Shown here piece after piece: positions 2,746 to 16,924 of a DNA stretch of 58,112 bases. Within the stretch, counting starts at the first letter, position 1, and each line of letters begins with the position of its first letter. A model generated the notes under the pieces. The model did no database searches. It was not told where the DNA came from and worked only from the letters and a program-made list of their open reading frames with translations. Source of the DNA: Microgenomates group bacterium Gr01-1014_7 (GTDB lineage: Bacteria; Patescibacteriota; Microgenomatia; Daviesbacterales; UBA10151); assembly GCA_007376405.1 (NCBI GenBank), contig VMGD01000009.1:1-58112 (forward strand), read 5' to 3'. The translations under genes and the position numbers were made by a program.

Positions 2746-3430
2746 AGGATCTAAGCGTATGAGGTGTAGCCTTTACTGAAAGGCCTAGTTTTTTGACATA
2801 CTTTTCTACAATCCTCTGGATTGAGCGGGGAGTAAGTCTCATTGCTTCGCCGTCATTTTCCACTACAACTCTTCCCTGAAACCTGATAAATAAAGGTTTA
2901 AAGCTGTCCTTCCTTACGCATCTCCTCATATATAGATATTTTTCCAGCCAGCGACCCGAATTGACTCCGTTACGATTAAGCAAAACAAGCTCCGATACCC
3001 GAAGTCCTGTGGAAAATATAGTTTCCAGGATAGCTTTATCTCTTATTCCATTTATTTTTGTAGTATCAGGCGCATCAAGAAGCACCATAAGCTGTGTATC
3101 GTTTAATACTTTCAAAGGAGATGCTTCTTGTTTATCCAGTTTAACTTCTTCCTTGGATAAACTTTTAATATTTTGCTCTTCAAGGTAGCGTAAAAATGTT
3201 CTAAGAGCAATTAAATAACAGTTGCGGGTCTTTCGTTTTAATGGTTTTTTTGAAAGATAAAGTTTATAACTTTTAACAAGTTTTAAATCTACGCTCTCCG
3301 GCTCAATATCACCGGCAAAATCCAAAAATTTCTTTAAGTATTGGTCATAGTTTCGAATAGTCAACAAAGATGCATTGCGCTCAACTTCAAGACATTCAAG
3401 AAAGTCCGTTAGAAGGGAAGAAAGAATCAT
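2714..3430 (-). pseudogene. tyrosine recombinase XerC/XerD-like, degenerate (internal deletion, 3' truncation, no catalytic Tyr)
   Basis: N-terminal SAM-like domain and ILETIFSTGLRVSEL (Arg box) are present. The GKGxKxR segment is missing. The ORF ends at TPHTLRSF before the HxxR..Y region, unlike the intact paralog at 14619-15629. Confidence 0.5.
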
Positions 3431-4152
3431 AGAAAAGCCAAACCCAGAATTCCCAAAACAGTCAAAACCGAACCTATTATTGCTATAGCAAATGTTAACT
3501 CCGGGGTGCCGGGACCTCTGCCTGTTTGATCAACTAAATTATCAATGGTTCTGTAACCAGCTGAAGGAGTAGCTATTCCTGTTTGACCTTGAGGCAAATA
3601 AACAACTGCCGGTCCAGGGGTTGGACTGGCACAGCTACCAGCTCCAATAGTATAGCTGCCGTTTCCAACCGAGGATAAAACATCCGCTACTGTTCCGCGC
3701 TGAACCACATTGGAATCGGTTGTTTTGGCTTTATTATTGGGATCAAAATCAAAAGTAATGGCGGTTGCTCCGGCCGGTGCAGCCTCCAGAACAGTAAAAT
3801 TTATTGTGGCCAAAGTACCCTTGCCGGAAAAAGCAGAGGCAACAGAGGCCAGACCGGATATAGTTACCCGCCCCGTAGTTGAATCTATATTTGAACCCGG
3901 ATAATCGCTATAAATAGTACCGTTTAAAATGGAAGTGGCAGTAAAACGGGTGGGATCGTAAACTAAAATTGCATCTGTCCCGTCTGTGTCGGCGCTTTGA
4001 GCATCAAGAGTTACAGTCAGGGCAAAACCGCAGCCTTTATTAAAGGTACCTGATGTGGGGGAAACCGACAGCGTTGCAGCAAAGGCGGCAGACGGTAATA
4101 TAACCGTTATAATGATTATAATTGTTATAATAGTTATAATTTTTATATTCAT
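3427..4152 (-). CDS. cohesin-like domain surface protein with signal peptide and C-terminal TM anchor
   Basis: Signal MNIKIITIITIIIIITVILPSAAFA. Cohesin-like pattern TLSVSP...FALTVTLDA...ILVYDPTRF...ATINFTVLE...ITFDF. C-terminal hydrophobic tail. ATGA overlap with the next gene. Confidence 0.7.
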   Translation of the reverse strand: MNIKIITIITIIIIITVILPSAAFAATLSVSPTSGTFNKGCGFALTVTLDAQSADTDGTDAILVYDPTRFTATSILNGTIYSDYPGSNIDSTTGRVTISGLASVASAFSGKGTLATINFTVLEAAPAGATAITFDFDPNNKAKTTDSNVVQRGTVADVLSSVGNGSYTIGAGSCASPTPGPAVVYLPQGQTGIATPSAGYRTIDNLVDQTGRGPGTPELTFAIAIIGSVLTVLGILGLAFL

Positions 4153-4814
4153 TTAATTACAATTTCCAGATTTCCAACTTCTTCCAGCAAATCTTTTCCG
4201 CTTTCAGTACCCACAATGTTGGAATCTGCTGTTGAACCGGGAGTAAAATCCAAAGTTATTTTTGCAACTCCTTTTTTTAGGGTCTTAAAATTAACTATAG
4301 CAAAAATATCTTTTCCCGAAAAACCAGATGTTCCGGGAGTGGCAATTCCGGAAATACTCAAAAACCCCGAGGGGTCAACTTTGCTTAGTGGAAACTTTGA
4401 AAAAATTGTGCCCTGATGAATATCTCCGTCAATTGCCGAAAGCATTGCCGGATCAAACTTTGCCACCACATCAACTCCTGCTGTAAACTTTGGGGAATTT
4501 ACCCCAACCGAAACTGCAATTGTATCTCCGACTTTTACCTCTTTTTTATCGCTAGTTAAGAAAATTGCGCCTTTGTTTGATTCCCTGGTAGCAGGCAGAT
4601 TTAAAATTCCACCATCAGGGGAAGCTGTAGAAGAAGGTTTGATAACAGAACGAAGCCCAAAAATAAGTTCTATGACCACAATAATACCTAAAACTATGAA
4701 AATATTTTTCGGGGTTATCCATTTACGTCCCGCAGAAATTGGAGGTTGAGGGAGCTGAGGTGTAGATGTTCCTCCTGTCGGAACAAAAATATTCGGCTGA
4801 GCAGTATTATCCAT
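4149..4814 (-). CDS. N-terminally membrane-anchored cohesin-domain protein
   Basis: TM segment IFIVLGIIVVIELIFGL, then VKVGDTIAVSVGV...VDVVAKFDPAMLSAI...FAIVNFKTLKKGVAKITLDF...DSNIV, a classic cohesin beta-sandwich pattern. Confidence 0.75.
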   Translation of the reverse strand: MDNTAQPNIFVPTGGTSTPQLPQPPISAGRKWITPKNIFIVLGIIVVIELIFGLRSVIKPSSTASPDGGILNLPATRESNKGAIFLTSDKKEVKVGDTIAVSVGVNSPKFTAGVDVVAKFDPAMLSAIDGDIHQGTIFSKFPLSKVDPSGFLSISGIATPGTSGFSGKDIFAIVNFKTLKKGVAKITLDFTPGSTADSNIVGTESGKDLLEEVGNLEIVIK

Positions 4815-4851
4815 ATAAGTTTACAATACTACATTTCTACTGTCTTTGTCA

Positions 4852-7827
4852 TCATGGGCTTGGACTTGGTGACGGTGTCGGGCTTGGACTGGAACTCGGA
4901 GTCGGAGTTGGACCAGCTGACGGAGAGGGAGTTGGTGTAGTAGAGGTACCTGTGGGGGTCGGGCCGCCAGAGGGAGTAGGAGAAGGTGAGGTAGCAGGAC
5001 TGATAATAGTAAGCGACCCTGCCGGGGTGGGGGATACGGTAATAGACAAAGGCCCTGGCTCCGGTTCGGAATCATCGGAATTGTTAAAATAAGGTCTCAT
5101 ACAAGCCCAGTCAAAGGAATTAACCCTACCATCACCGTTAAGGTCAGCCCTTTTTTCTCCTGTTGCAGCTTGCGCCACCACCCATTCCCGAATCATCTGT
5201 CCAAAATCAGCACTGTTAATTTTTCCATCCCCCTGCACCGGGAAAATATCACCAACAGGTAAATCCAGCGAACCTAATCTGGTAGTGCCCCTGTTGGCAA
5301 AAAATTCAACTACCCTCCGCAGAGTACCCGGAGCTTTTATGCCTATACGATAACCTCTACCTTGTTGAAGTCTCGTGCGGAGTCCGGATATTAATCCGTT
5401 TGCACCGATACTGACGGTTTCCTGTACAACACTTCCGCCCTCACGGCCTTCGGCAATAGTTGCAGTTACATTAGATAAGGTTTGTGTCAAAGTTTGCCTG
5501 CAGAAAAAGTTAGCTCCCAGTTGCAGTTGGGATGTTGCAACAGAACAGGTGGTGGACTGCGTTGCGGCACCATCCTGACGGGTTAAAATGATTGGGAAGG
5601 ATTGGCCGGTTGTGGCTGTCTGATTCAGGGTGGCAGTAACTTGACTGTCACTCCAGGAATCAATATTAAGGGCAGTTGAGCCGGTTTTAACAGACCCGTC
5701 CCTTCCTTGGCTCGCTCCAAAGAATCTACCGGTTAATGTAAAGCGCACGCCTCCATCAACACCAAGGTCACATGATATGCCTCCACCAGTAACATCCAAA
5801 GTGGGATCAGGATTAACAATCCTTATGGTAAATGGCCCTATTGGACCGGAATCTGTTGCCTCACCGGCAGGACCGGTACCTAAAAACTTAACCCAAATTT
5901 CATGGTCTATATCAACAGTTCTATTTCTGAAGCTGTAGGGAAGAGTCAGGGGAGATGCTGTATAAGCTACCTCCGTATAAAGACTTGCATCCCCCAACCC
6001 TGCGCTTGATTCGGCAATTCTTACCCTGGTAGTTGTAGCAGCCAAAGGATCAACAGTTAACTCTGCCGAATTATCAACACAACCGCTGCCTGCCGTTCCT
6101 GTTATAACCATACCCCTTGTTTGTCCGGAGAATCTATAGCTTTGGCCGGGCTGAGTGGGTACTCTCGGAGTATAATCCGATACAGGTCTTATAGAACCAT
6201 CAGCATTAACATTTATATCAACCTCTGACCCGTCAGGAGCATGCACGGTAATAAAAACATCATTGGCAATATTATTTGTTCTGTAACCCCAAACTCCGTC
6301 AACATTATGGAAAGCCGCCACGTCTACCCTTTCTCCAATCCTTATCCTTCTGTTTCTAACCCAGTTTGTTTCACCCTGCCCTCTGAGACGAACTTCGGTT
6401 CCCTGATATATACAGGCGGAAAGAGCAGGTCTTCTGGCAACTCTGACTATAAATGGCGCGCAAACTTCGGCATTGCTGCCCGTTGCATCTGTAGCAATTC
6501 TTGATTCTACTGTGTATTCGTTTTCCCTGGCAGTACTTGTATTGGCCAAAATATTCATAGCCCAGCCTGAATCCGGAGCTTGAATTCTACCTGGTCTTTG
6601 GGTAAAGGTAATATTCGGTATTGTTGTACCCGGAGAAGGCGCAGGAGTAATAGGAAGTACAGTGGATGTGGGCTGTAAAACAATGCTTGTTGCCGGAGTT
6701 CTTGTGACATTCAACCGCACGTTTCCACCGCTGTCCCTGACAGGATATACATTCTCACCACCCGGCCCGGTTTCACCAGCTAGCGCGGTTAAACCTTCAG
6801 GAACTGCATTAGTACAAATTAGAGCAACAGGCGATGGAGTAGGGGTTGGGGAAGGACACAAAGTCGTAGTAAAGCTGCGAACAGGTGAATGAATACCTGC
6901 GCCTGTTACAGGAGTACCCACGGGATTCGCCTGACCGTTAAAAACCCTGACAAAGTAAGTTCTGCCCGGCACAGGTCTAAATACTCCTGCTGGTCCTGTT
7001 GTAATCAGATGATTAAAACCTGTTAGATCAGCGGTGTATTGAGTTCTTCCCGCAATAGCCACAAAATCCCTATGGTAAAAGTTTGTGCCCGCAAAATTCG
7101 AATCTTCTGAAATATCAATCCAGAATCTGTCACTAAACGACTGACCCTGCCAGTGTATGATAATTCTTCCCAGCTGATCATTAGTCAAATTAGATGAGAA
7201 ACAACTTGGTAGTAAATCAAGGGTAAATGCAACATCAGTAATAAAGGGCTGACCCGGGGCAAGGGATGGGGTTGGAGAAGGGGATATTCCGGGCAGAGAG
7301 TATTGGCCGCTAACATTGTCGGTTGAGGAAATCAAGCTTGTGCTCGTGGCGGCAATAAATCTGGTATTTGCCCCGTCAATAGTAATCGGGACAGGGCTTG
7401 ACCCTGCAGCTGCCAAAAGTCTGGCTGTAAGAGTACCAACTTCCACTCCTCCTCTTCTTGGTTCACCCGAAGTATTCACCACCACAAATCTTCTATTATC
7501 CGCAGTTATAAAAACCTGTCTGAAATTAGGGGTTGTTGGAGAAAATCTTACTATTTCTATCTTGGTGGCATCAAAATTTAATGAAATATCAGCGCCGGAA
7601 ACATCGGCGTTAGAATTCATCATGATCCTGATAGGAAATTCAACTCCGGCAGCCCTGGTATCTGTTGCAGGAACCAGTCTAAAAGAAGCTACCTCTCCTG
7701 TAGCCCTGGAACGCAAAATCTGCTGCTGGCGGACAAGATACATTGTTGCCGGTATGGCAACAAGCAACGCTATTATACCTGCCAGCATAAGCCACTTTCT
7801 ATTTAAGTTTTTAACTGCGTTAATCAT
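4852..7827 (-). CDS. large secreted/surface protein with N-terminal anchor motif, cohesin-like module, uncharacterised modules, dockerin and PT-rich tail
   Basis: 991 aa. N-terminus ...LLVAIPATMYLVRQQQILRSRA. Dockerin ADLNGDGRVNSFD. C-terminal PTPSPS tail. Confidence 0.85.
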   Translation of the reverse strand: MINAVKNLNRKWLMLAGIIALLVAIPATMYLVRQQQILRSRATGEVASFRLVPATDTRAAGVEFPIRIMMNSNADVSGADISLNFDATKIEIVRFSPTTPNFRQVFITADNRRFVVVNTSGEPRRGGVEVGTLTARLLAAAGSSPVPITIDGANTRFIAATSTSLISSTDNVSGQYSLPGISPSPTPSLAPGQPFITDVAFTLDLLPSCFSSNLTNDQLGRIIIHWQGQSFSDRFWIDISEDSNFAGTNFYHRDFVAIAGRTQYTADLTGFNHLITTGPAGVFRPVPGRTYFVRVFNGQANPVGTPVTGAGIHSPVRSFTTTLCPSPTPTPSPVALICTNAVPEGLTALAGETGPGGENVYPVRDSGGNVRLNVTRTPATSIVLQPTSTVLPITPAPSPGTTIPNITFTQRPGRIQAPDSGWAMNILANTSTARENEYTVESRIATDATGSNAEVCAPFIVRVARRPALSACIYQGTEVRLRGQGETNWVRNRRIRIGERVDVAAFHNVDGVWGYRTNNIANDVFITVHAPDGSEVDINVNADGSIRPVSDYTPRVPTQPGQSYRFSGQTRGMVITGTAGSGCVDNSAELTVDPLAATTTRVRIAESSAGLGDASLYTEVAYTASPLTLPYSFRNRTVDIDHEIWVKFLGTGPAGEATDSGPIGPFTIRIVNPDPTLDVTGGGISCDLGVDGGVRFTLTGRFFGASQGRDGSVKTGSTALNIDSWSDSQVTATLNQTATTGQSFPIILTRQDGAATQSTTCSVATSQLQLGANFFCRQTLTQTLSNVTATIAEGREGGSVVQETVSIGANGLISGLRTRLQQGRGYRIGIKAPGTLRRVVEFFANRGTTRLGSLDLPVGDIFPVQGDGKINSADFGQMIREWVVAQAATGEKRADLNGDGRVNSFDWACMRPYFNNSDDSEPEPGPLSITVSPTPAGSLTIISPATSPSPTPSGGPTPTGTSTTPTPSPSAGPTPTPSSSPSPTPSPSPSP
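5080..5265 (-). other. dockerin type I-like module (two EF-hand-like Ca loops)
   Basis: PVQGDGKINSADFGQMI ... DLNGDGRVNSFDWACM. The second loop fits DxNxDGxVNxxD exactly. Confidence 0.7.
7348..7695 (-). other. cohesin-like module at the N-terminus of the 991-aa protein
   Basis: FRLVPATDT..GVEFPIRIMMNS..VSGADISLNFDATKIEIVRF..VGTLTARLLA..PITIDG pattern. Confidence 0.5.
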
Positions 7828-10448
7828 GGTCTAAAATTCCTGTTCCATATATCAAAATCCGCGTCAAGCACTCCGCCAATACAATCAAAGTTTGCTGTTT
7901 GTGTAGTGAGCGGCCCAAATCTTTCATTTCTCCAGATATTAAAGTCTCTAAGATCTGTATTTCCATCACCATTTGCATCCCCTGTGGGCCTTTGTATACA
8001 GACAGCAACAGATGGAGCGGGGGAAGGGGAAACACTGCATTGAGCTACTGTGAAGCTGGGCGGACGAGGAAATTCTCGTTGTTGGGCAGTATCTATACCA
8101 AAACTGTGTCTTCCATCAGTAAATACTCTGAAATGATAGATGGTATTTGGGGTAAGTTGCAAAGCTTGCCCGCCTTGAATACGGTGGAAATTACTTAGGT
8201 TTACTTCCGGAAAAGTAATAGTGGTTGGGTTGAGAGCAGAATAGAATGCATTATAATAATTATCATCGAAGTTTGGCCTGGTTGAAATATCAACATAGAA
8301 ACCAGGTCCGGTAGTTCCATCGGGACGGTTAACTGTTCCAGGTCTTCCTGAAAATACAATTGAACCTCCAGCCTGGGTGGGGCCGGAAACACATGATTGG
8401 ACTCCTGTATGTCCCAAATCAAATATCTGTAAAACCCCGGGGGGAGGGGGAGGAGAAGGTGGTGTAGGAGAAGGTGATGCGGTACAAACGATTAATCTGT
8501 TTGCAGTAATGGTTGTTGGCATGGAACCAGTTAACACCTGTATTTGCCCTCCTGTTCGTTGTACTATCCTTACATAATAGTCAATATTTGGTGTAATACT
8601 TAACGGATCCCCAGGATTTACTGTACCAACAGAAACAAAACCAGAAAAATTAGTTTGAGCAAGAGATGAACTTACGCTTTTTTCAAAAACCTGGCCGGTA
8701 AAGTTATTACTCGAGCTTATTTGAACAAATAAAGTGGAAGGCAAATTGCCACTGCCTACCCAGTTAATGCTGGCAGCGCTGTATGTAGAAGGGTTATTAA
8801 TACAGCTTGGAGGAGTAATTGAATTTATGGTAATTTGTCCTGCAATAGGGGAAGGGGTTGGAGTAGGGGTAAGGGAAGGGGTTGGAGTAGGGGAAAGTAT
8901 TGGAGAATAATTAATACCTGCAGAAAATGGCAAACCTATAGGTACACCTGTATCAGAATAAAACTGGGCGCAGACCCATCTTGATCCGTAGACGGTTCCT
9001 GCCCTTAAACCAGTCAAATCCCATCTATCAATAGTGAATGTGTTTCCGGATCTTGTTCCCCTGGTTGTATTATTCATGTCAATGATCTCAACATTCGACG
9101 GTCCACCTGCAATAATGTTGTCTAAATTATATCTACAGTCAGCATCTGATACACTGCTGACTGATACCCTAACAAAAGTAGGCAAACTTGGTGCCGAAGT
9201 GGGAGAAGGTGTAGGAGTGGCAGATGGTCTGGGGGTAGGACTTGGAGAGGGGGTGGGAGTGGGAGTAGCCGCACCTGCCACCGTAACATTTGCAGTACAC
9301 TCTGCTATTATTTGAGTGCCGGCAGCGTTTCGATTTTGGAAAGTCAATGTATAATTTCCAGCAGGGGTGGAACTTGTAATAGGTATGATGAATGTATAAC
9401 GGGTCTGATTTGGAATTGGGGTGGTGAGTATTCCCCCTTGAGCATTGATGTACCATGAGCAATTACCTCCCGGGTAGACACAGGCAAGATAATCTCCAGC
9501 AGGCGGAGGACCCAACAAAGCAGTAAAAGTGGCTATTTGACCAGCTGTTAATGTGGTTGATGGTGTAACAACTACTGCACATGTACTGGCAGGAGTCGGA
9601 GTTGCAGGAGGAGCAGTAGGAGTTAAAGTTGTTGCGCTGCATTGGGTAGAACAGGCTGAACAGGAAATACAGGTAACTAACCCGTCAGCACTCGATGTAC
9701 CGGGTTGGCAAAGATGAGCGCTACATACAGGTGCACCCGTCCTCCTGTCACAACTGCATGTTTGTCCAGAGCCAGGAGTTATAAGAGGGAATTGGGGGAT
9801 AGTAGGCTGTGGAGAGCAAAAAGGAAGACAACTTGGTGGAGGTGTTGGTCCACAATAGGGAGGACAACTTGGCGAAGGTGGTGGCCCACAATTAGGATAG
9901 CATGGTGGAAGAGTTGACCCTCCTCCTCCCGGCGGATCTCCTGAATACCATGTCATATAGCTTATGGGTTGCAGAGACCCGCAGATCCAACCCTGATCGC
10001 CAAAACAGGGCTGGTTAAATACATCAATCTGAATAGTCCAACCAGGAGCGGTTGGAGCAATTGCAAACCCGGCAGGATTTGCAGGGTCTATGGGATGCCC
10101 CTGGATATCTTGAGTTATTAAACCACTGTTACAATTAGCAACAGGGGGACCCTGACAGGCAAAAACATAAATAAATCTTCCCGGTCCACCTGCACATGTT
10201 CCTGTAGAAGGATTACAACCACTAGCTAACGTAGCTAACGGACTGGAACCAAAAACGTTGGTGTAGTAGCCTGATAAAAATCTTACAGCTCCAGGGGGAA
10301 GCACATCTGCTTTCGGTTTAAAAATTTGAGTTCGCTGGACCAGGTATAAGGTGGCAGGCAAAGCTATTGCCACAATTGCCAAAATTATCCATTGTATGAA
10401 GCCAGCTTCTTGCTTCGCAATAAAGCCTTTATTGTTAAATTGTTTCAT
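7824..10448 (-). CDS. large secreted Cys/Pro-rich surface protein with N-terminal anchor motif and C-terminal dockerin-like module
   Basis: N-terminus ...IVAIALPATLYLVQRTQIFKPKA. C-terminus GDANGDGNTDLRDFNIW. Start taken at the ATG in caATGAAACAATT, which is shared with the paralogous start at 12657. The ORF could extend to 10466. Confidence 0.8.
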   Translation of the reverse strand: MKQFNNKGFIAKQEAGFIQWIILAIVAIALPATLYLVQRTQIFKPKADVLPPGAVRFLSGYYTNVFGSSPLATLASGCNPSTGTCAGGPGRFIYVFACQGPPVANCNSGLITQDIQGHPIDPANPAGFAIAPTAPGWTIQIDVFNQPCFGDQGWICGSLQPISYMTWYSGDPPGGGGSTLPPCYPNCGPPPSPSCPPYCGPTPPPSCLPFCSPQPTIPQFPLITPGSGQTCSCDRRTGAPVCSAHLCQPGTSSADGLVTCISCSACSTQCSATTLTPTAPPATPTPASTCAVVVTPSTTLTAGQIATFTALLGPPPAGDYLACVYPGGNCSWYINAQGGILTTPIPNQTRYTFIIPITSSTPAGNYTLTFQNRNAAGTQIIAECTANVTVAGAATPTPTPSPSPTPRPSATPTPSPTSAPSLPTFVRVSVSSVSDADCRYNLDNIIAGGPSNVEIIDMNNTTRGTRSGNTFTIDRWDLTGLRAGTVYGSRWVCAQFYSDTGVPIGLPFSAGINYSPILSPTPTPSLTPTPTPSPIAGQITINSITPPSCINNPSTYSAASINWVGSGNLPSTLFVQISSSNNFTGQVFEKSVSSSLAQTNFSGFVSVGTVNPGDPLSITPNIDYYVRIVQRTGGQIQVLTGSMPTTITANRLIVCTASPSPTPPSPPPPPGVLQIFDLGHTGVQSCVSGPTQAGGSIVFSGRPGTVNRPDGTTGPGFYVDISTRPNFDDNYYNAFYSALNPTTITFPEVNLSNFHRIQGGQALQLTPNTIYHFRVFTDGRHSFGIDTAQQREFPRPPSFTVAQCSVSPSPAPSVAVCIQRPTGDANGDGNTDLRDFNIWRNERFGPLTTQTANFDCIGGVLDADFDIWNRNFRP
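7827..7991 (-). other. dockerin-like module (first loop canonical, second degenerate)
   Basis: DANGDGNTDLRD fits DxNxDGxxxxxD; the second repeat is DCIGGVLDADFD. Confidence 0.5.
9795..9902 (-). repeat. three tandem 12-aa Cys/Pro repeats (36-nt units)
   Basis: CYPNCGPPPSPS / CPPYCGPTPPPS / CLPFCSPQPTIP. Confidence 0.7.
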
Positions 10449-10462
10449 TGTTAAATTGTTAA

Positions 10463-10873
10463 TCATGGTCTTGGTGTTGGACTGGGACTTGGTGTCGGGC
10501 TTGGATTAACGGTTGTCGGGGATGGAGTAACTGATGGACCGGTACCGGTAGGAGAAGGTGACACAGCAGAAGTAGGAGCCGGACTGCCGGATGGGGAAGG
10601 GGTGGAAGTAGGTTGAGTACCCGGAACATTAGGGGCAGTAATAACTAAATCCACTCTGGCATTACCGTCGGCATCCAGTTTTAAAATAGTCCTATTATTT
10701 CTGGTGGCCACATTAGGCCCGGAAAAAGTTACTCCTCTGGGCGGTTCTACTGCTTTGGATTTTAAAGTCTGTTCCTTTTTGATAAGCTGAAGGCCCAGAG
10801 GAATACCCGTAATTAAAATTAAAAGGATTAAAACAGTTATTAAATTTTTTTTGTTCTTTAAGAAGTCATTCAT
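10463..10873 (-). CDS. small secreted PT-rich protein with the shared N-terminal anchor motif
   Basis: LITVLILLILITGIPLGLQLIKKEQTLKSKA followed by a PT-rich tail. ATGA overlaps on both sides. Confidence 0.7.
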   Translation of the reverse strand: MNDFLKNKKNLITVLILLILITGIPLGLQLIKKEQTLKSKAVEPPRGVTFSGPNVATRNNRTILKLDADGNARVDLVITAPNVPGTQPTSTPSPSGSPAPTSAVSPSPTGTGPSVTPSPTTVNPSPTPSPSPTPRP

Positions 10874-11124
10874 GGATAAGTTAACCTTAATTTAACATTT
10901 GGTTCAGTGCTTACTGGAGTTCCCGCAGCATTAGTGCCAATATCAACAAAGCCGGTACCTGTACGGAAAAATTCCATCGGAGCAGTTCCCGTTGCCCTGG
11001 GTTTAAAAATTTGGGTTTGACGGGCAAGATACATAGTCAGGGGAATAGCTATCAATAAAATAAGCAATCCGATAATAGTTAAAAGCTGCTTTTTAGATTT
11101 AAATAACAAAGTGATCCGCTCCAT
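10870..11124 (-). CDS. small secreted protein with the shared N-terminal anchor motif
   Basis: MERITLLFKSKKQLLTIIGLLILLIAIPLTMYLARQTQIFKPRA. The longer ORF (to 11169) starts at a TTG and adds an implausible 15-aa extension. Confidence 0.55.
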   Translation of the reverse strand: MERITLLFKSKKQLLTIIGLLILLIAIPLTMYLARQTQIFKPRATGTAPMEFFRTGTGFVDIGTNAAGTPVSTEPNVKLRLTYP

Positions 11125-11211
11125 AGGGACTATATTATAATAATGTATTATAGTAGAGGCTTTTGTCAATCCTTAAGGTGCATGTTAAGGGAAGTCTGAA
11201 TTTTTAATAAA

Positions 11212-11257
11212 AACGGCAATCTCAGTTTTTAAATCAATAAGTATTTTAATTGCCGTT
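11212..11257 (-). terminator. hairpin AACGGCAAT-(28 nt)-ATTGCCGTT followed by a T-run on the minus strand, possible terminator after 11306-12385
   Basis: 9-bp perfect stem. The minus-strand sequence continues TTTATTAAAAA. The large loop makes this tentative. Confidence 0.35.
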
Positions 11258-11305
11258 AGTGTTTGTCATTCTGGCTTGTCCCCGATTACAGGTGCAATAA
11301 GGTTA

Positions 11306-12385
11306 TTAACGAGGAAGAAGACCAAAATCTATTATCCAGTCACTGATAGAGCCGTCGTTCCTGGCAGAAGGAAGAGGATAAGTGATAAAAAAACCATTAT
11401 TTGCCGTAGTTAATTCATATTCTGCAGGTACGGTTAAATCCAGCCTGTAGGAACCCGCAGGAAGATTCTGGAAACTGTATCTTCCATCAGATCCGGTGGT
11501 TGTACTGAAGACTTGCCCGTTGGGATAGTTTGCCTGATTTGTTAATTCAACTGACATGTTTGAAAGAGCTTGTTCGCTTGAACTCCTGCTTCTATTTCTA
11601 TTCAAGTCTTCAAAAACGATCCCGGATACTGTATAAGTTCTTTGTGAGGGCGAACTGGACGGGGTAGGACTGGGGTTTGCTGAAATGGACGGCTCAACAA
11701 TAGATCCTGCCGGAGTGAATTCGCATTGGCCTCTGGTAAGGGTAACATGGTCGAACCATCCTGCCCCTCCTCCCGTATCTGATCTAAGATAGATCTTAAA
11801 CTGCGCGCCCTGTCTTGGCGAAATAATTGAATCGTTAAGATAAATATTTTGTTCATCCCAATTCCAGTCAGTTCCGGGGCCGGTGAAACGAAAGACTTTT
11901 TCTTGTCTGGGAGCTGCAACCGATCTAATTCCCACAGTTAACTGGTCACCATAGGTCCGTATTTTGCGGAACACCCGCAAACAAAGCGTTTCACCTTGAT
12001 TAAACGTATCATTAATAGTTTGGGTTAATTGAAATGCTGCTCCCTGGGGGTTAACAATTTTAGCCGACCCTGCCCGGTATCTTGAACGCAGTTCCGCAGG
12101 AGCTACTGCAACAGTTGTATCCTGCTGACAGGGGTATGCACCTGCAGTTTCAGGACGCACTAAACCAAGTGAGTCTTCACAGGTCCAGCTAACTAACCGT
12201 GCGCTTGGCGAGGCAACTTCAAAACTGCCGTTTCGCAACAAGTTTACAGGAGGAGTTTCTTGAGCTTTGGGTTTAAAAACAGTAGTACTTTGGGAGAGTA
12301 TAAGCAGGACAGGGAGAGCTACCAGCAAAATAATAATAGGTATGGCAGGCAATACAAACCCCATTTGTTTTCTTAAAAAGCTCAT
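11306..12385 (-). CDS. secreted protein with shared N-terminal anchor motif, jelly-roll/CBM-like region and C-terminal SdrD-B/Cna-B-like domain
   Basis: N-terminus ...LLVALPVLLILSQSTTVFKPKA. C-terminus YTVSGIVFEDLN...GSDGRYSFQNLPAGSYRLDL. Confidence 0.8.
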   Translation of the reverse strand: MSFLRKQMGFVLPAIPIIILLVALPVLLILSQSTTVFKPKAQETPPVNLLRNGSFEVASPSARLVSWTCEDSLGLVRPETAGAYPCQQDTTVAVAPAELRSRYRAGSAKIVNPQGAAFQLTQTINDTFNQGETLCLRVFRKIRTYGDQLTVGIRSVAAPRQEKVFRFTGPGTDWNWDEQNIYLNDSIISPRQGAQFKIYLRSDTGGGAGWFDHVTLTRGQCEFTPAGSIVEPSISANPSPTPSSSPSQRTYTVSGIVFEDLNRNRSRSSSEQALSNMSVELTNQANYPNGQVFSTTTGSDGRYSFQNLPAGSYRLDLTVPAEYELTTANNGFFITYPLPSARNDGSISDWIIDFGLLPR

Positions 12386-12408
12386 AATTTATAGTGGTCA
12401 TAAAGCAA

Positions 12409-12657
12409 TTAATTTGTCAAGCCCTCTAAATCCCTTATCCTGATAGTTACATCTAAGAAATCAGTATCATAAACTCTTTGTCCATTAACTTCTCTGGTGG
12501 GCAGGGGTGAGCCCTGAGGATCAGTAACCTCAAAAGCATTATATATTTCATTACTGGCTTTGGATTTTAATATTTTTTCAGTCCTGACCAGATAAATAGT
12601 CAGGGGAATAGCTATCAGCAATATTACCAATAAACTTAAACTAATTAATTGTTTCAT
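12409..12657 (-). CDS. small secreted protein with the shared N-terminal anchor motif
   Basis: MKQLISLSLLVILLIAIPLTIYLVRTEKILKSKA. The upstream 19 codons of the long ORF are made of repeat sequence (LRLRSGQA). Confidence 0.6.
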   Translation of the reverse strand: MKQLISLSLLVILLIAIPLTIYLVRTEKILKSKASNEIYNAFEVTDPQGSPLPTREVNGQRVYDTDFLDVTIRIRDLEGLTN

Positions 12658-12659
12658 TG

Positions 12660-12683
12660 CCTGCCCTGAGCGAAGTCGAAGGG
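12660..12683 (-). repeat. 24-bp GC-rich mini-repeat (cccttcgacttcgctcagggcagg on the minus strand)
   Basis: Matches 39121-39145 and 21700-21724. Absent from the otherwise paralogous site at 10436-10470. Confidence 0.6.
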
Positions 12684-12717
12684 TTAAATTGTTAAATTGT
12701 TTTAAATTATTCATAAT

Positions 12718-14562
12718 TTATCTGCATTCATTTCTTCTGTCAATCTGATCATACGCCCAGCTATAAGATATACATCTGGCAGGACATTCAGTTGCTGTAC
12801 CGCAAGCAGCGCCCCTTCCCAAATTCCTTCCTTGAGCAGGGCTTGGAGTGGGAACAGTACATCTGTAATACCCTCCTGCAATACCATATGTGCAGGTAGC
12901 TGGAGGACGGCAGGGAGTGCCGCCAATACTGCATATTTGATTTAGCTCTATGTAGGCAGGGGAAGTAGTGGGAGTTTGAATACTTCCGGGAGTTGGATAA
13001 GTATAACCAGGACCTCTTGGAGGTGTGGGACCTCCACTTCCTTGCGAGCTAACAGTAATGTAAGTATCAACACTCTGACATAAGGGAGTATTGTTTTGAT
13101 CAAAAGCTGTAAACCTGAATACATAATTTCCAATGGCATCAGCTCCGTAGTTGGGATAAGTTACACTCCATATGCCTGTCCGGGAATTAAAGTTTTGCTG
13201 AAAGTTTGGAATATCCGCGGGAGGATTAATGGGTATTCCTCTAAATAACCCTGACCACTGTGCATTTGTTGCTGATGAAGGAATCTGCGTAACTTCAAAA
13301 GTCCCGGTGCCCCCAACTACGATTATAGCCGGATCACTTAAGGAAGAACCTCTACAGTTTATTCCTCCGGTACAGTTAACTTTAAGTGCACAATATGGAA
13401 GTGAGCCTGTAAGGGGGGAAGGGGATGGAAGAACAGTTCCCAGGAAATTTAGATAGTTAAAATTAAATAAAACCGGCCTGGTTGTCCCGTCCGAAAAACC
13501 TATGGTCATATAAACAGGGAAAAGTTGGGGAGTACCAAATGTACCCGGAAGGTTGATGGGGATTTCCATCGTACTTGAATCAAAAGTGCGTCCATTGACG
13601 GATATGGATGTTATTGTTCTGCGCGGAGGAACTGTCGGAGAAGGTGTCGGAGTTGGCGGTAAAACGGGAGCGGTAATAATTAAAGGCTGCGGGTCAGAAT
13701 CCAAAACTTCCTGTGAACCATTTCTATGCATATACGCTACCAGGTTATATGTACCGGGAGAGGTGGCTGGGGGAATTGCTATGATATATAAATTGGGGAT
13801 TACTTCTGAAGCAAGCAAAGCATTAATTTCTTTGGTACTTTTGAATGTACTTTGAGCAAAAGCTTCTTTAATTATTCCGGTCCTTAAACCTACTGGTTCC
13901 AGTGCAAAAATTTCCCTGTACCTGTCCGGGTCGGAAGGATCCAGCCCATCCTCATGCTCAATCAAAAAAACACTAATAATTCCTCCTGCCGCACTCTGAC
14001 CGGGAGAGCCAATAATCTGTACATCAGTATCTACTGCTCCTCCATAGAAGGAAGGTATCAGGGTTGCATACCAGTCCCTAATAGCCCGGGGAAAATTGGG
14101 ATTGGTATTAAAAATACAGGGCGCAAGCCTTGATTCGCTGTAAGTACACATAAAATCAGCAAATCTGTCACTGGTTGGGAATTGAGTATTAAAACTATTG
14201 AAAAGGCATCTTAAACTTAAATTAATATCTGTTGTCGGCCGGGTGGGTTCACAACCCAATGCATCAGCATAACCTTCTTCCCCCTGTGCTCCGGATTCTT
14301 CTATCCAAAGAGTTAAAACAAAAGCCGGATTCCAGCCATTAGCTATAGACTGGTTAACTATTGTGTCCCAATTTTGCAACTGGGCATTTGGCCATCTTGC
14401 CCGGATCAGGTTTCTTACTGCTTGCGGATTGGCAACCCTTACATCAGTATCCCTAAAGGGGATAGTATAAGTTAATGTCAGAGCATCCGGATTTAGGGAA
14501 TGTGCGTCTTTGGGAATTACAAAAAAGATTATGCTGAAAACAAGTAAAAGTATTAATTTCAT
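12718..14562 (-). CDS. secreted protein, function unknown, Cys-rich C-terminus (first gene of the surface-protein operon)
   Basis: Signal MKLILLLVFSIIFFVIPKDAHS, PT linker, 614 aa. The LWIEESGA segment only faintly resembles a glycosidase catalytic Glu context. Confidence 0.75.
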   Translation of the reverse strand: MKLILLLVFSIIFFVIPKDAHSLNPDALTLTYTIPFRDTDVRVANPQAVRNLIRARWPNAQLQNWDTIVNQSIANGWNPAFVLTLWIEESGAQGEEGYADALGCEPTRPTTDINLSLRCLFNSFNTQFPTSDRFADFMCTYSESRLAPCIFNTNPNFPRAIRDWYATLIPSFYGGAVDTDVQIIGSPGQSAAGGIISVFLIEHEDGLDPSDPDRYREIFALEPVGLRTGIIKEAFAQSTFKSTKEINALLASEVIPNLYIIAIPPATSPGTYNLVAYMHRNGSQEVLDSDPQPLIITAPVLPPTPTPSPTVPPRRTITSISVNGRTFDSSTMEIPINLPGTFGTPQLFPVYMTIGFSDGTTRPVLFNFNYLNFLGTVLPSPSPLTGSLPYCALKVNCTGGINCRGSSLSDPAIIVVGGTGTFEVTQIPSSATNAQWSGLFRGIPINPPADIPNFQQNFNSRTGIWSVTYPNYGADAIGNYVFRFTAFDQNNTPLCQSVDTYITVSSQGSGGPTPPRGPGYTYPTPGSIQTPTTSPAYIELNQICSIGGTPCRPPATCTYGIAGGYYRCTVPTPSPAQGRNLGRGAACGTATECPARCISYSWAYDQIDRRNECR

Positions 14563-14618
14563 ATATACATTTATACAAACATGTTTTAGGTAATCGTGTC
14601 AATCAAGAGGGGATTAAG

Positions 14619-15629
14619 TTATTCTCTTTTTGCTAAAGGGTGATACTTTCGGTGAGTTTCTTGAGCAAATCTATCCGAGGCATTCACATACCTTGTAGTT
14701 GTATTAAGAGATTCATGGCCCAATAAAATTTGAATTGCAGCAGGACTGGCACCCTCTTCAACCAAGTAAGTAGCAAAACCATGCCTAAACGAGTGAGGGG
14801 TAGTAGGAAGATTGATCCTTAAAGCTTCTCTGTATTTTTGAATTATCCCTTCAATATAACGGGCTGTAAGTCGCTGGGGTATACCTTTTCCGGCTGTCTT
14901 ACTTTTAGTTGGTACAAATAGCGCTTGTTCTCGATCCTGTCTCAATTTTAAATAACTCTCCAAGTAAGACTTGGCACGATCGGTTAAATAAACAAATCTT
15001 TGTTTTCTACCTTTACCGGTTATAAAAATCTTACCCTCATCATTTAAATCACGTTTATTTAGATTGACTAATTCGGAAATACGCATCCCCGTAGAAAAAA
15101 GGGTTTCTAAAACTGCTCTATTTCTTGCACCAATCAGCAAGTTTTTTTCCAAACGAGAGGGGCTTTCTATCAAAGCAACTAAATCTTGAAAATCCGCCAC
15201 ATTCGGATGGGGTCTTTCTCTTTTAACCATCTTGAAGAAATCAGGAATAATTGGACAATCATATTCTTGATCGATTAAGAACCTAATGTAGGCTCTCACA
15301 GCTGACAAACATCTGTTAATACTAGTTGCAGTTAATCTGCGTGGCGAATCCTCTTTCAGAAAGGAGGTTTTTCTATCATTTGATGCAAGATAGGCTTTGA
15401 ATTCCAAGACAGAGCGTTTATCTAAATCTTTAATAAATAGGTTTCTCGATTCGAGAAAGTTGTCAAACAACAACAAATCGCTTTTGTAATGGTAAATCGT
15501 CTCAGGAGAATAATTATTGGTTTCCAAAAATAAATAGAAGTCTTCAATTAAATCCAATCTTAAAGCTTTATGATTACCAATACTACTTTTAGGTTCAGAC
15601 ATTTGATTTAAGGGCGTTAAGCCTTTCAA
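14619..15629 (-). CDS. tyrosine recombinase XerC/XerD family (intact)
   Basis: RNRAVLETLFSTGMRISEL, GKGRKQR, HSFRHGFATYL, LLGHESLNTTTRYV (R-K-H-R-H-Y set present). Confidence 0.9.
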   Translation of the reverse strand: MKGLTPLNQMSEPKSSIGNHKALRLDLIEDFYLFLETNNYSPETIYHYKSDLLLFDNFLESRNLFIKDLDKRSVLEFKAYLASNDRKTSFLKEDSPRRLTATSINRCLSAVRAYIRFLIDQEYDCPIIPDFFKMVKRERPHPNVADFQDLVALIESPSRLEKNLLIGARNRAVLETLFSTGMRISELVNLNKRDLNDEGKIFITGKGRKQRFVYLTDRAKSYLESYLKLRQDREQALFVPTKSKTAGKGIPQRLTARYIEGIIQKYREALRINLPTTPHSFRHGFATYLVEEGASPAAIQILLGHESLNTTTRYVNASDRFAQETHRKYHPLAKRE

Positions 15630-16095
15630 AGATTAAATTAAGACCTTGATTTATCGGGTCGATTACAGTCTCAACTCTAGAACGTCCTTTTCCTCCTTTA
15701 AAGTCGCCAGCGGAAGGTCTTAAATAAAAGAATTGATCCCTTTTTATAGAATCTCTTGGAAAAACTAAGAATTTATATAGGGAGAGATCCTCCTCAAGTA
15801 ACACAAAAACATAATAATCCGATATTGATCTCTTTAATGCTCCAAATTGCCAACCTGAAGCATATGCCTTATCTGCGCTTTCTTTAACATAACTATATGT
15901 AGAACGCTTACAGTTTCTGCTATAAACTGCTGTTTTCACTTCTAGAGTAATATTTCCTTCTACGATTATATCTGCCAAGCTATTTATATTGTGATTACCT
16001 AAAATATAACAGTTAAAACCTTTTTTAAGTATTTCGGAATAGAGGAGTGCTTCACCTAATTTTCCCAAAATAGTTCTACCAGAGGAGTTTCTCAT
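15595..16095 (-). CDS. PD-(D/E)XK nuclease-fold protein (PDDEXK_5-like)
   Basis: GKLGEALLYSEILKKGF...ADIIVEGNITLEVKT gives a D..E.K arrangement. Overlaps the Xer gene start. Confidence 0.6.
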   Translation of the reverse strand: MRNSSGRTILGKLGEALLYSEILKKGFNCYILGNHNINSLADIIVEGNITLEVKTAVYSRNCKRSTYSYVKESADKAYASGWQFGALKRSISDYYVFVLLEEDLSLYKFLVFPRDSIKRDQFFYLRPSAGDFKGGKGRSRVETVIDPINQGLNLIFERLNALKSNV

Positions 16096-16924
16096 ATTTT
16101 TATATTTTAATCCTTTTACACCAACCTTTAAATTTTATCATCAGTAGGTAAGTATAATTATCTTACTTGTAATGCTGATTACAAGAATCATATCATGCCT
16201 AAATGGGCTTTGTCAAGCGTTAAAATGAACTCCTTTAGAACTACATATACTATTAAGAATTATTCATGAAGATTTCTTTATTAAAAATTAGGTAAAAATA
16301 ATAAAGGAAAACCCTCTCTATCTTCCTCTCATGCCTGTTTAGGCTGAGGCCCGTAAAGGGCCCTAAAACGGTTTGAAAGGGAAGGGGTGCTACCAAACAT
16401 CATGTAAATAAGCTTGTCACAAAGACCCAAACTATAAAACTTAATGAAAATAATTTGCATGAAAAATATTATGAATTTTTGGGGGCGAATATAGCCTTTT
16501 TAAGTACCAGAAAAATTTGGTAAAAATTTCCAGCTTTTGGAATTAAAATATTTCCTAAAGGTTCAAAAGGTCTCCCCTTGACCAAAATATATATCCATAT
16601 ATTGTGCGACATCAAACATAGAAGGGAATTTAAAAGACTTCCCAAAAAGAGGATAAGAGGAAGAGACTTCATCACTCTTTACCACGAAGTGGCAAGCTTT
16701 GCTTATCTTAACTGTTACTCTTATACCGGACAAGAACACCTCTCTTCTCGGGTGGGCTTCGGGTATTGTCAGTGAGTCCCATAGTTTTCCACATTCGTGC
16801 CTGTTGACTACATCAAACCATATCATACTTTCTTTTCACGAAAATTTGCATTTTTTTCACGCCTCTCCTCTACTTTAGCTTGTTATAACAATATAATTGA
16901 AAATTGTGAATTGAAAATTCAATT

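Follow-up and report, generated by a model that had tools for sequence, protein, structure and literature searches.

The systems closest to the one described here are the cellulosome scaffoldins of Firmicutes (ScaA, ScaB and ScaC of Acetivibrio cellulolyticus, SdbA and OlpB of Clostridium thermocellum, ScaB and ScaE of Ruminococcus flavefaciens). They combine beta-sandwich cohesins, two-repeat calcium-type dockerins, cell-bound cohesins on which dockerin proteins dock, adaptors with both a cohesin and a dockerin, and at least two dockerin sequence types within one system. A counterpart of each is predicted from a single operon on contig VMGD01000009.1 (assembly GCA_007376405.1, Microgenomates group bacterium Gr01-1014_7); the whole stretch of 58,112 nt that was analysed is referred to as the window. 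The operon is a run of co-directional genes on the minus strand, in the order I-H-G-F-E-D-C-B-A, followed by the gene of a Xer-like recombinase. Proteins A and B carry a cohesin each, C carries both a divergent cohesin (cohN) and a dockerin, and D carries a second type of dockerin. With a probability of roughly 0.68, we consider the operon to specify a membrane-rooted, modular, non-cellulosomal cohesin-dockerin assembly system of Candidatus Daviesbacteria, a lineage that falls within the candidate phyla radiation (CPR).

In its layout the system resembles the anchoring and adaptor layer of a cellulosome, as if moved onto membrane-anchored single cohesins. Cellulosomes have scaffoldins with several cohesins, whereas the Daviesbacteria proteins A, B and C have one each, and A and B appear to be held by transmembrane helices instead of SLH domains or sortase. 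The operon proteins gave no SLH or LPXTG family match in Pfam or NCBIfam, and Pfam detected no carbohydrate-binding module (CBM) on A, B or C. Further differences are the lack of glycoside hydrolase cargo in the window, the host, which is a tiny, uncultured CPR bacterium of groundwater type with a small genome, and a cargo leader peptide that is specific to the lineage. What is new here is a phylum-wide variant of cohesin-dockerin assembly with matched module numbers and a dedicated cargo leader.

Non-cellulosomal cohesins and dockerins occur in all domains of life, and such modules were reportedly surveyed across the three domains by Peer et al. in 2009. Structural matches to our model of protein A included a cohesin from Archaeoglobus fulgidus (2xdh) and cohesin-like modules from Clostridium perfringens (2jh2, 2vo8). 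These cases are like the present one in that homologs of cohesins and dockerins are found outside cellulose degradation. They are, however, isolated modules or enzyme-enzyme complexes (in C. perfringens, of toxin and glycosidase), whereas in Daviesbacteria the operon is conserved throughout a candidate phylum, combines hypervariable cargo with a pair of membrane sockets, and has its modules in matching numbers. In the cultivated Saccharibacterium Southlakia epibionticum, a transposon screen is reported to have found a dockerin-annotated envelope protein, SEML1_0315, to be essential (PMC10633639); its authors speculated on the targeting of host glycans, and the main text does not mention cohesins (PMC10633639). 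SEML1_0315 is a CPR envelope protein with a dockerin, as C and D are predicted to be, but it belongs to another CPR lineage and is likened to them here by description, not by sequence. In a literature search we found no paper on this operon or on any cohesin-dockerin system in Daviesbacteria or Microgenomates.

An initial annotation of the window had proposed three cohesin-like modules (in A, in B and at the N-terminus of C) and two dockerin-like modules in the C-terminal regions of C and D, with a C-terminal membrane anchor in A and an N-terminal one in B. All five modules were recovered by our searches, though the Pfam comparison it had called for bore out only a part of them. The cohesins of A (Cohesin, PF00963; 42.4 bits, E 1e-10) and B (31.9 bits, E 1.7e-7) exceeded the family cut-off of 24.1 bits, as did the dockerin of C its own; cohN, searched alone, scored 16-19.6 bits and fell under the cut-off, and the dockerin of D was missed in the window copy. 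For these two modules the identification came from family profiles. Protein B also matched type II cohesins among the PDB sequences in a phmmer search (5g5d_A, E 6.5e-5).

The cohesin fold was checked by a structure model for A only. The AlphaFold2 model, built on 70 homologs, had a mean predicted local distance difference test score (pLDDT) of 83. In it, a signal helix at the N-terminus precedes a beta-sandwich (residues 26-173), which a disordered linker (178-208) connects to a helix at the C-terminus (217-240). Searching the PDB with this model in Foldseek gave 78 matches at E <= 0.001, the best 50 of which were all cohesins, so that the possibility of another beta-sandwich family, raised in the initial annotation, did not hold for A. 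The top match was 6kgf_C, the CohA2 cohesin of Clostridium acetobutylicum in complex with a dockerin (E 1.3e-11, TM-score 0.80), and the structural neighbours were the cellulosome anchoring and adaptor scaffoldin proteins named above. The membrane topology of both proteins agrees with the earlier proposal as far as sequence and model allow, the anchor of A being the C-terminal helix of the model and that of B a hydrophobic run read from the sequence. The C-terminal segment of A (3433-3540), GxGPGTPELTFxxAIxGSxLTxLGxLGLAxL, was nearly invariant across the 70 homologs and stops exactly at the C-terminus, without a basic tail. It is conserved beyond the need of a plain membrane anchor and recalls a sorting signal, though no known sorting-signal model in NCBIfam matched it. 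Cohesin A is the best conserved component of the system.

Protein C has the layout of an adaptor, with cohN and a dockerin (C-type) in one polypeptide. The profile of cohN was built from relatives collected at related loci. Seven of the 10 members of this family match Pfam Cohesin (best E 8.2e-8), the profile aligns to that of cohesin B with an hhalign probability of 97.3% (E 2.4e-11) and to that of cohesin A with 88%, and its matches among PDB sequences were cohesins only. At the profile level, its identity as a cohesin is convincing. The dockerin of C is unambiguous, matching Dockerin_1 (PF00404) with 38.4 bits against a cut-off of 22.9; of the 42 members of its family, 41 match Dockerin_1. 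It also matched the PDB dockerins 1daq and 2mte, and both of its repeats align with the CelS dockerin; the second calcium loop, DLNGDGRVNSFD, reads as canonical. Upstream lies a stalk with an IPT/TIG Ig-like domain, detected as TIG in 22 of the 42 members and matching the IPT/TIG domain of cyclodextrin glucanotransferases in the PDB (E 2e-8). An ortholog of C with 50% identity is found in the same gene order in L003, one of the related loci (numbered with the prefix L) described below. A search with full-length C recovered one relative, apparently as a result of its low-complexity Pro/Thr stretches, and a search with its conserved C-terminal 323 residues recovered three.

The dockerin of D ends the protein and forms a second dockerin type (D-type), for which the evidence is at the profile level. 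Its family profile matched solved dockerins of the PDB with E 3.6e-11, seven of the 15 family members match Dockerin_1, and the L003 ortholog of D scores 25.7 bits, above the cut-off. The first loop of the window copy, DANGDGNTDLRD, reads as canonical. A PDB sequence search with D returned nothing useful. Cys/Pro-rich repeats (PPCYPNCGPPPSPSCPPYCGPTPPPSCLPFCSP) and further Cys-rich stretches were seen in D at about residues 180-290 (about 9600-9930) and suggest disulfide-rich extracellular segments. The earlier statement that the operon lacks glycoside hydrolases and is not a classical cellulosome agrees with our results, as neither such a domain nor any other catalytic domain was detected in C or D by Pfam, NCBIfam and PDB sequence searches.

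The operon is lineage-wide and conserved across a candidate phylum. Protein A had 832 homologs, the best 120 of which are 55-83% identical and about 240 residues long; those with source names belong to Candidatus Daviesbacteria or Microgenomates. The closest named homologs place the genome in the Patescibacteria group, Microgenomates group, Candidatus Daviesiibacteriota, in keeping with the CPR-like origin suggested in the initial annotation. Scanning one genome per species yielded 63 loci. About half of the locus titles read "uncultured Gammaproteobacteria" (binchicken co-assemblies) and were taken as placeholder names; setting these aside, all titles more precise than "bacterium" name Daviesbacteria, Microgenomates or Patescibacteria. 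Modules were classified with competing hidden Markov models (HMMs), and a census set was formed from the distinct loci that extend 7 kb or more upstream of A, 46 in all. In 44 of these a large protein ending in a C-type dockerin is followed by cohesin B and then by cohesin A. The N-terminal parts of the cargo differ greatly between species, with the IPT/TIG stalk and the dockerin constant at the C-terminus; other cargo genes, among them a 1094-aa neighbour in L004, are highly diverse. Some database entries were already labelled "cohesin domain-containing" and others "hypothetical".

The numbers of cohesins and dockerins co-vary across the census loci (Spearman 0.73), the commonest relation being one cohesin more than there are dockerins. 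In the automatic census, a D-type dockerin and an extra N-terminal cohesin were found together in five loci, one without the other in one locus each, and neither in 39 (Fisher p 2.6e-5, uncorrected for phylogeny). We read the exceptions: L019 and L054 carry a second subtype of N-terminal cohesin, and the D-type dockerins of L025 lie just below the threshold. To avoid bias, all loci were then re-scanned with a model of the new cohesin subtype and with relaxed dockerin thresholds, and new matches appeared only in loci that already held the partner module. After this re-scan the two modules occurred together in 9/9 loci, in ratios of 1:1 or 2:2, and in none of the others. The earlier proposal that the chain could be extended through the cohesin of C itself gains from this pattern.

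Duplications point to the partner of the C-type dockerin. Six of the 10 loci with two C-type dockerin proteins have an extra B-like cohesin, which comes with a tandem copy of the cargo-plus-B unit in L039 and L066 and is fused directly behind the dockerin, as a natural adaptor, in L055, L056, L058 and L062. The same fusion is seen in L061, which is truncated upstream. The tandem and fused duplicates favour B over A as the partner, by six loci to one, or seven with the truncated L061. Taken with the D-type pattern above, two different modes of chain extension are thus seen among Daviesbacteria lineages. In both, a cohesin was gained along with a dockerin, which we regard as the strongest argument that the modules form functional cohesin-dockerin pairs. 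A second locus in one Daviesbacteria genome (ND2_Bin_11), L065 (JAKFWZ010000078.1, about 8000-16700), encodes one protein in which two B-like cohesins are combined with a C-type dockerin and another in which an A-like cohesin is fused to a D-type one; three more proteins there end in a D-type dockerin. It shows that the system can be expanded and rewired. Pairing by Mantel tests, which gave r 0.40 (p 2e-4) for the C-type dockerin against cohesin B, was discarded as evidence, since the stalk, which is not part of the interface, correlates more strongly with B (r 0.57), which shows that the signal is not specific to the interface. When the two dockerin repeats were analysed separately, their Mantel signals did not differ.

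Proteins C, D, E, F, G and H begin with one common leader, found nowhere else in the window. It opens with basic residues, continues as a hydrophobic helix some 20 residues long that contains a conserved (I/L)P, and closes with a polar, Q-rich segment that ends in S/P-[KR]-A (consensus ...AIPLxxYLVRQxQIxKSKA). We know of no described signal that matches it. Across 60 distinct loci, 93 of 95 leader-bearing open reading frames (ORFs) were located upstream of cohesin A and on the operon strand; a dockerin is present in 52 of the leader-bearing ORFs, and some 20 encode small proteins of 73-138 aa that resemble E, F and H. When 1.84 billion cluster representatives were searched exhaustively with the leader profile, 759 proteins matched at E <= 0.001; in all of the 150 listed but one, a repetitive case, the match starts no further than about 35 residues from the N-terminus. 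Dockerin_1 was the commonest Pfam domain in 86 of these proteins with at least 150 aa (22/86), and others carry metallopeptidase (M11, M64, M6, M12), pectate-lyase-like, BNR or CBM domains. The leader marks cargo and is lineage-specific, and in other genomes the leader-bearing system probably displays enzymes. Some orthologous cargo (P0123-P0125, and in L019 and L054) has an ordinary cleavable signal peptide in place of the leader, and in these proteins the dockerin would be the sole anchor. Because such orthologs exist, a free N-terminus is suggested to be the functional state.

From these patterns we infer physical binding, the choice of partners, leader cleavage and a biological role for the system. 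The cytoplasmic membrane would hold A by its C-terminal and B by its N-terminal helix, with the cohesins of both on the outer side. C would be exported and dock through its C-type dockerin on this membrane pair, with cohesin B as the likelier socket, and cohN of C would in turn capture the D-type dockerin at the C-terminus of D. The predicted outcome is an enzyme-free, membrane-rooted chain running from the membrane over B/A to C and D and made of Ig-like and fn3-like domains. The gene order D-C-B-A mirrors the distal-to-proximal order of this assembly. That the modules form a functional cohesin-dockerin assembly of some kind is, in our judgement, probable; for the specific chain of D on C on B the odds are about even. 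The only signals seen in C and D are Ig-, fn3- and TIG-like, next to Pro/Thr or Cys/Pro linkers, so that a fibre or adhesin is likelier here than an enzyme complex. Cargo that is hypervariable between species, on conserved sockets, likewise suits a surface fibre or adhesin with exchangeable parts better than metabolic machinery. Tentatively, and with less confidence than for the chain, a plug-and-socket system dedicated to the surface may exist in Daviesbacteria, and perhaps also in related Microgenomates; in it the leader would export diverse cargo and two orthogonal cohesin-dockerin specificities would mount it non-covalently on the membrane cohesins. This could amount to a pilus-like organelle whose hypervariable distal subunits set the attachment target, possibly a host, with cohesin A perhaps having an unseen partner or role, such as clamping the same dockerin together with B.

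Several observations weigh against such an assembly. Cohesin A has no obvious partner of its own in the locus and its distances do not track those of the C-type dockerin (Mantel r 0.09); it may bind the C-type dockerin jointly with B, or a protein encoded elsewhere. The correlation of that dockerin with cohesin B is non-specific, as noted above, and the adaptor in L032 has an A-like and not a B-like cohesin. The loci counted for co-occurrence are related by descent and so not phylogenetically independent. Throughout its family, the C-type dockerin has a non-canonical insertion of five residues in the first loop (GDIFPVQGDGKINSAD). In addition to escaping Pfam in the window copy, the D-type dockerin has a degenerate second loop, NFDCIGGVLDAD, in which positions 5 and 9 are lost (I and L); both are retained in the L003 ortholog. 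The AlphaFold2 model of full-length C, made from a 5-sequence alignment, reached a pLDDT of only 39.7 and was unusable, so that domains in the middle part of C and in D are assigned from weak sequence matches (fn3-like Pur_ac_phosph_N, TIG). Lastly, an uncleaved leader would leave the cargo anchored in the membrane at its N-terminus, which would make the simple fibre picture wrong.

The operon could alternatively be an enzyme-display platform analogous to a cellulosome or amylosome, in which membrane cohesins dock secreted hydrolases that digest polymers or the envelopes of host or prey, with C and D as substrate-binding or unrecognised catalytic subunits. Leader proteins elsewhere do carry Peptidase_M11, M64, M6 and M12, pectate-lyase-like beta-helix, BNR, CBM_4_9 and alpha-1,3-glucanase-type domains, many of them along with dockerins; the diversity of the cargo genes, the L004 neighbour included, would suit such a platform, and protein G combines an N-terminal stretch that looks CBM-like by eye, where Pfam gives no match, with an adhesin-type domain. 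We nevertheless regard this as unlikely for the operon in the window, where searches of Pfam, NCBIfam and PDB sequences gave no catalytic family for C or D and no scaffoldin with several cohesins is encoded. Furthermore, the part common to all C-type cargo is the IPT/TIG stalk with the dockerin, not an enzyme.

Less likely again is that the modules do not bind each other at all, in which case the cohesins would be generic beta-sandwiches that act as spacers or bind ligands, the dockerins would be EF-hand-like tails stabilised by calcium, and the genes would be mere neighbours with envelope functions. Many non-cellulosomal cohesin and dockerin homologs lack a demonstrated partner, and the partly degenerate dockerin of D and the partnerless cohesin A would be at home in such a scheme. 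The strict gene order and the matched module numbers over some 46 species-level loci, with 9/9 co-occurrence and extra C-type dockerins accompanied by extra cohesins, are hard to explain without pairwise interaction, and natural dockerin-cohesin fusions of adaptor layout recur. To a fourth scheme we give the least credit: the leader would be an uncleaved membrane anchor, and the dockerins would bind cohesins in trans on neighbouring cells or in cis as a lattice, giving cell-cell adhesion or an S-layer-like lattice and not a fibre. At about 20 residues, the hydrophobic part of the leader could span a membrane, and the conserved S-[KR]-A lies, by our reading of the sequence, about 10 residues past it, beyond the usual distance for signal peptidase I. 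Yet the cargo orthologs of other lineages have ordinary short signal peptides, which argues that a free N-terminus is compatible with function.

A large part of bacterial diversity belongs to the CPR, whose members are mostly regarded as dependent on other cells. How they build surfaces and attach is little known in lineages other than Saccharibacteria. The operon predicts surface proteins, their order of assembly and the parts that vary between species. If the proposed membrane-rooted assembly is correct, it would extend cohesin-dockerin assembly from polysaccharide degradation to the envelope architecture of ultra-small bacteria, and would provide new, possibly orthogonal, cohesin-dockerin pairs for protein engineering. 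Binding between the modules can be tested with small recombinant proteins, which offers a concrete experimental handle on CPR surfaces.

Table 1. Features of the operon and of the adjoining recombinase gene, with positions in the window (leave-window-out HMM, family model built without the window copy).
Feature	Residues or length	Position	Strand	Description or evidence
Protein I	614 aa	12718-14562	minus	Ordinary signal peptide
Protein H	101 aa	12409-12714	minus	Leader and short domain; likely start ATG at 12657
Leader of H		12538-12657	minus	Leader motif
Protein G	359 aa	11306-12385	minus	Leader and SdrD_B/prealbumin-like adhesin-type domain (Pfam SdrD_B, E 2.7e-13)
Leader of G		12248-12385	minus	Leader motif
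Protein F	99 aa	10870-11169	minus	Leader and domain of about 40 aa; likely start ATG at 11124
Leader of F		10978-11124	minus	Leader motif
Protein E	136 aa	10463-10873	minus	Leader, short domain, Pro/Thr tail; ATGA overlap with D
Leader of E		10733-10873	minus	Leader motif
Protein D	880 aa	7824-10466	minus	Leader, Cys/Pro-rich and fn3-like regions, D-type dockerin at extreme C-terminus
Leader of D		10293-10448	minus	Leader motif
D-type dockerin	aa 822-879	7830-8003	minus	Leave-window-out HMM, E 2.3e-13 over its full length
Protein C	991 aa	4852-7827	minus	Leader, cohN, variable fn3-like middle, IPT/TIG stalk, C-type dockerin, Pro/Thr/Ser-rich tail
Leader of C		7702-7827	minus	Leader motif
cohN (divergent cohesin)	aa 45-177	7297-7695	minus	Pfam below cut-off; leave-window-out HMM, E 2.2e-16
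Conserved stalk before dockerin of C		5263-6078	minus	Upstream part of the first row of alignment A7 (5068-6078); common to all C-type cargo
C-type dockerin	aa 856-919	5071-5262	minus	Dockerin_1, 38.4 bits
Protein B	221 aa	4149-4814	minus	Short cytoplasmic N-terminus, predicted N-terminal transmembrane anchor (about aa 37-58), linker, cohesin B
Cohesin B	aa 83-221	4152-4568	minus	Leave-window-out HMM, E 5.1e-45
Protein A	241 aa	3427-4152	minus	Cleavable-looking signal peptide, cohesin A, disordered linker of about 40 aa, predicted C-terminal transmembrane anchor
Cohesin A	aa 26-174	3631-4077	minus	Beta-sandwich with pLDDT mostly >90; leave-window-out HMM, E 1.6e-73
Transmembrane helix of A	aa 217-240	3433-3504	minus	AlphaFold2 helix; conserved motif GxGPGTPELT just before
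Truncated Xer-like tyrosine recombinase	238 aa	2714-3430	minus	Pfam; start overlaps stop of A

The initial annotation had placed the operon at 3427-10466 and given 874 aa for protein D. The genes within that span were as described, and the cluster reaches further, to about 12714 and perhaps to 14562. The length given for D is obtained only with a start at Met7, the protein having 880 aa from the first ATG. All five ATGA overlaps that had been listed (3427-3430, 4149-4152, 7824-7827, 10463-10466 and 10870-10873) are present and suggest coupled translation; the first of them joins A to the truncated recombinase and not to another surface protein.

Related loci also have the Xer-like recombinase gene next to the operon, as a conserved neighbour. 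The window copy has lost its catalytic C-terminus and the copy in L005 is truncated too, whereas those of L003, L023 and L050 have the full length (298-314 aa). A second, intact recombinase gene (14619-15629) was found on the other flank of the gene cluster. With the operon lying between two tyrosine recombinase genes, a shufflon or inversion was considered and rejected, as there were no meaningful inverted repeats; the direct repeats at the operon are Pro/Thr-linker codons and leader-coding DNA. The G+C content is 0.43-0.46 over positions 4000-14000 of the window against about 0.37-0.41 elsewhere, and the GC skew is of opposite sign. The raised G+C is most simply explained by Pro/Thr/Gly-rich coding. 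Given this, and since the position of the locus is conserved across the lineage, a recent genomic island was likewise rejected.

Downstream, the operon is adjoined by genes for an IS200-like Y1 transposase (183-866), an Amidase_2 peptidoglycan hydrolase with DUF4214 (1266-2525) and a Phage_holin_4_2 family membrane protein (2377-2745). Neighbours kept in related loci are YebC, RuvC and DUF5656 upstream, and the Xer-like recombinase, the holin-family protein and the amidase downstream. The remainder of the window is ordinary chromosome (DnaB, HisRS, Lgt, M1 peptidase, S41 protease, a two-component system and tRNA-Leu), and a scan with the family HMMs found no cohesin or dockerin module in the window outside the operon. 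Protein I gave no match in Pfam, NCBIfam or PDB sequences.

The small proteins E, F and H consist of the leader and a domain of about 35-40 aa with the pattern ...IEF...V.L.L.Y. Elsewhere, longer proteins with the leader (P0130, P0132 and P0141) have this domain as their N-terminal part. This short domain might serve as a cap, plug or assembly element. A small gene equivalent to E precedes the cargo gene in L004-L006. P0126, the cluster representative of protein F, starts at a later Met, has 79 aa and is identical to F over those 79 residues. Sequence identical to that of the window was present on contigs of two public metagenome assemblies.

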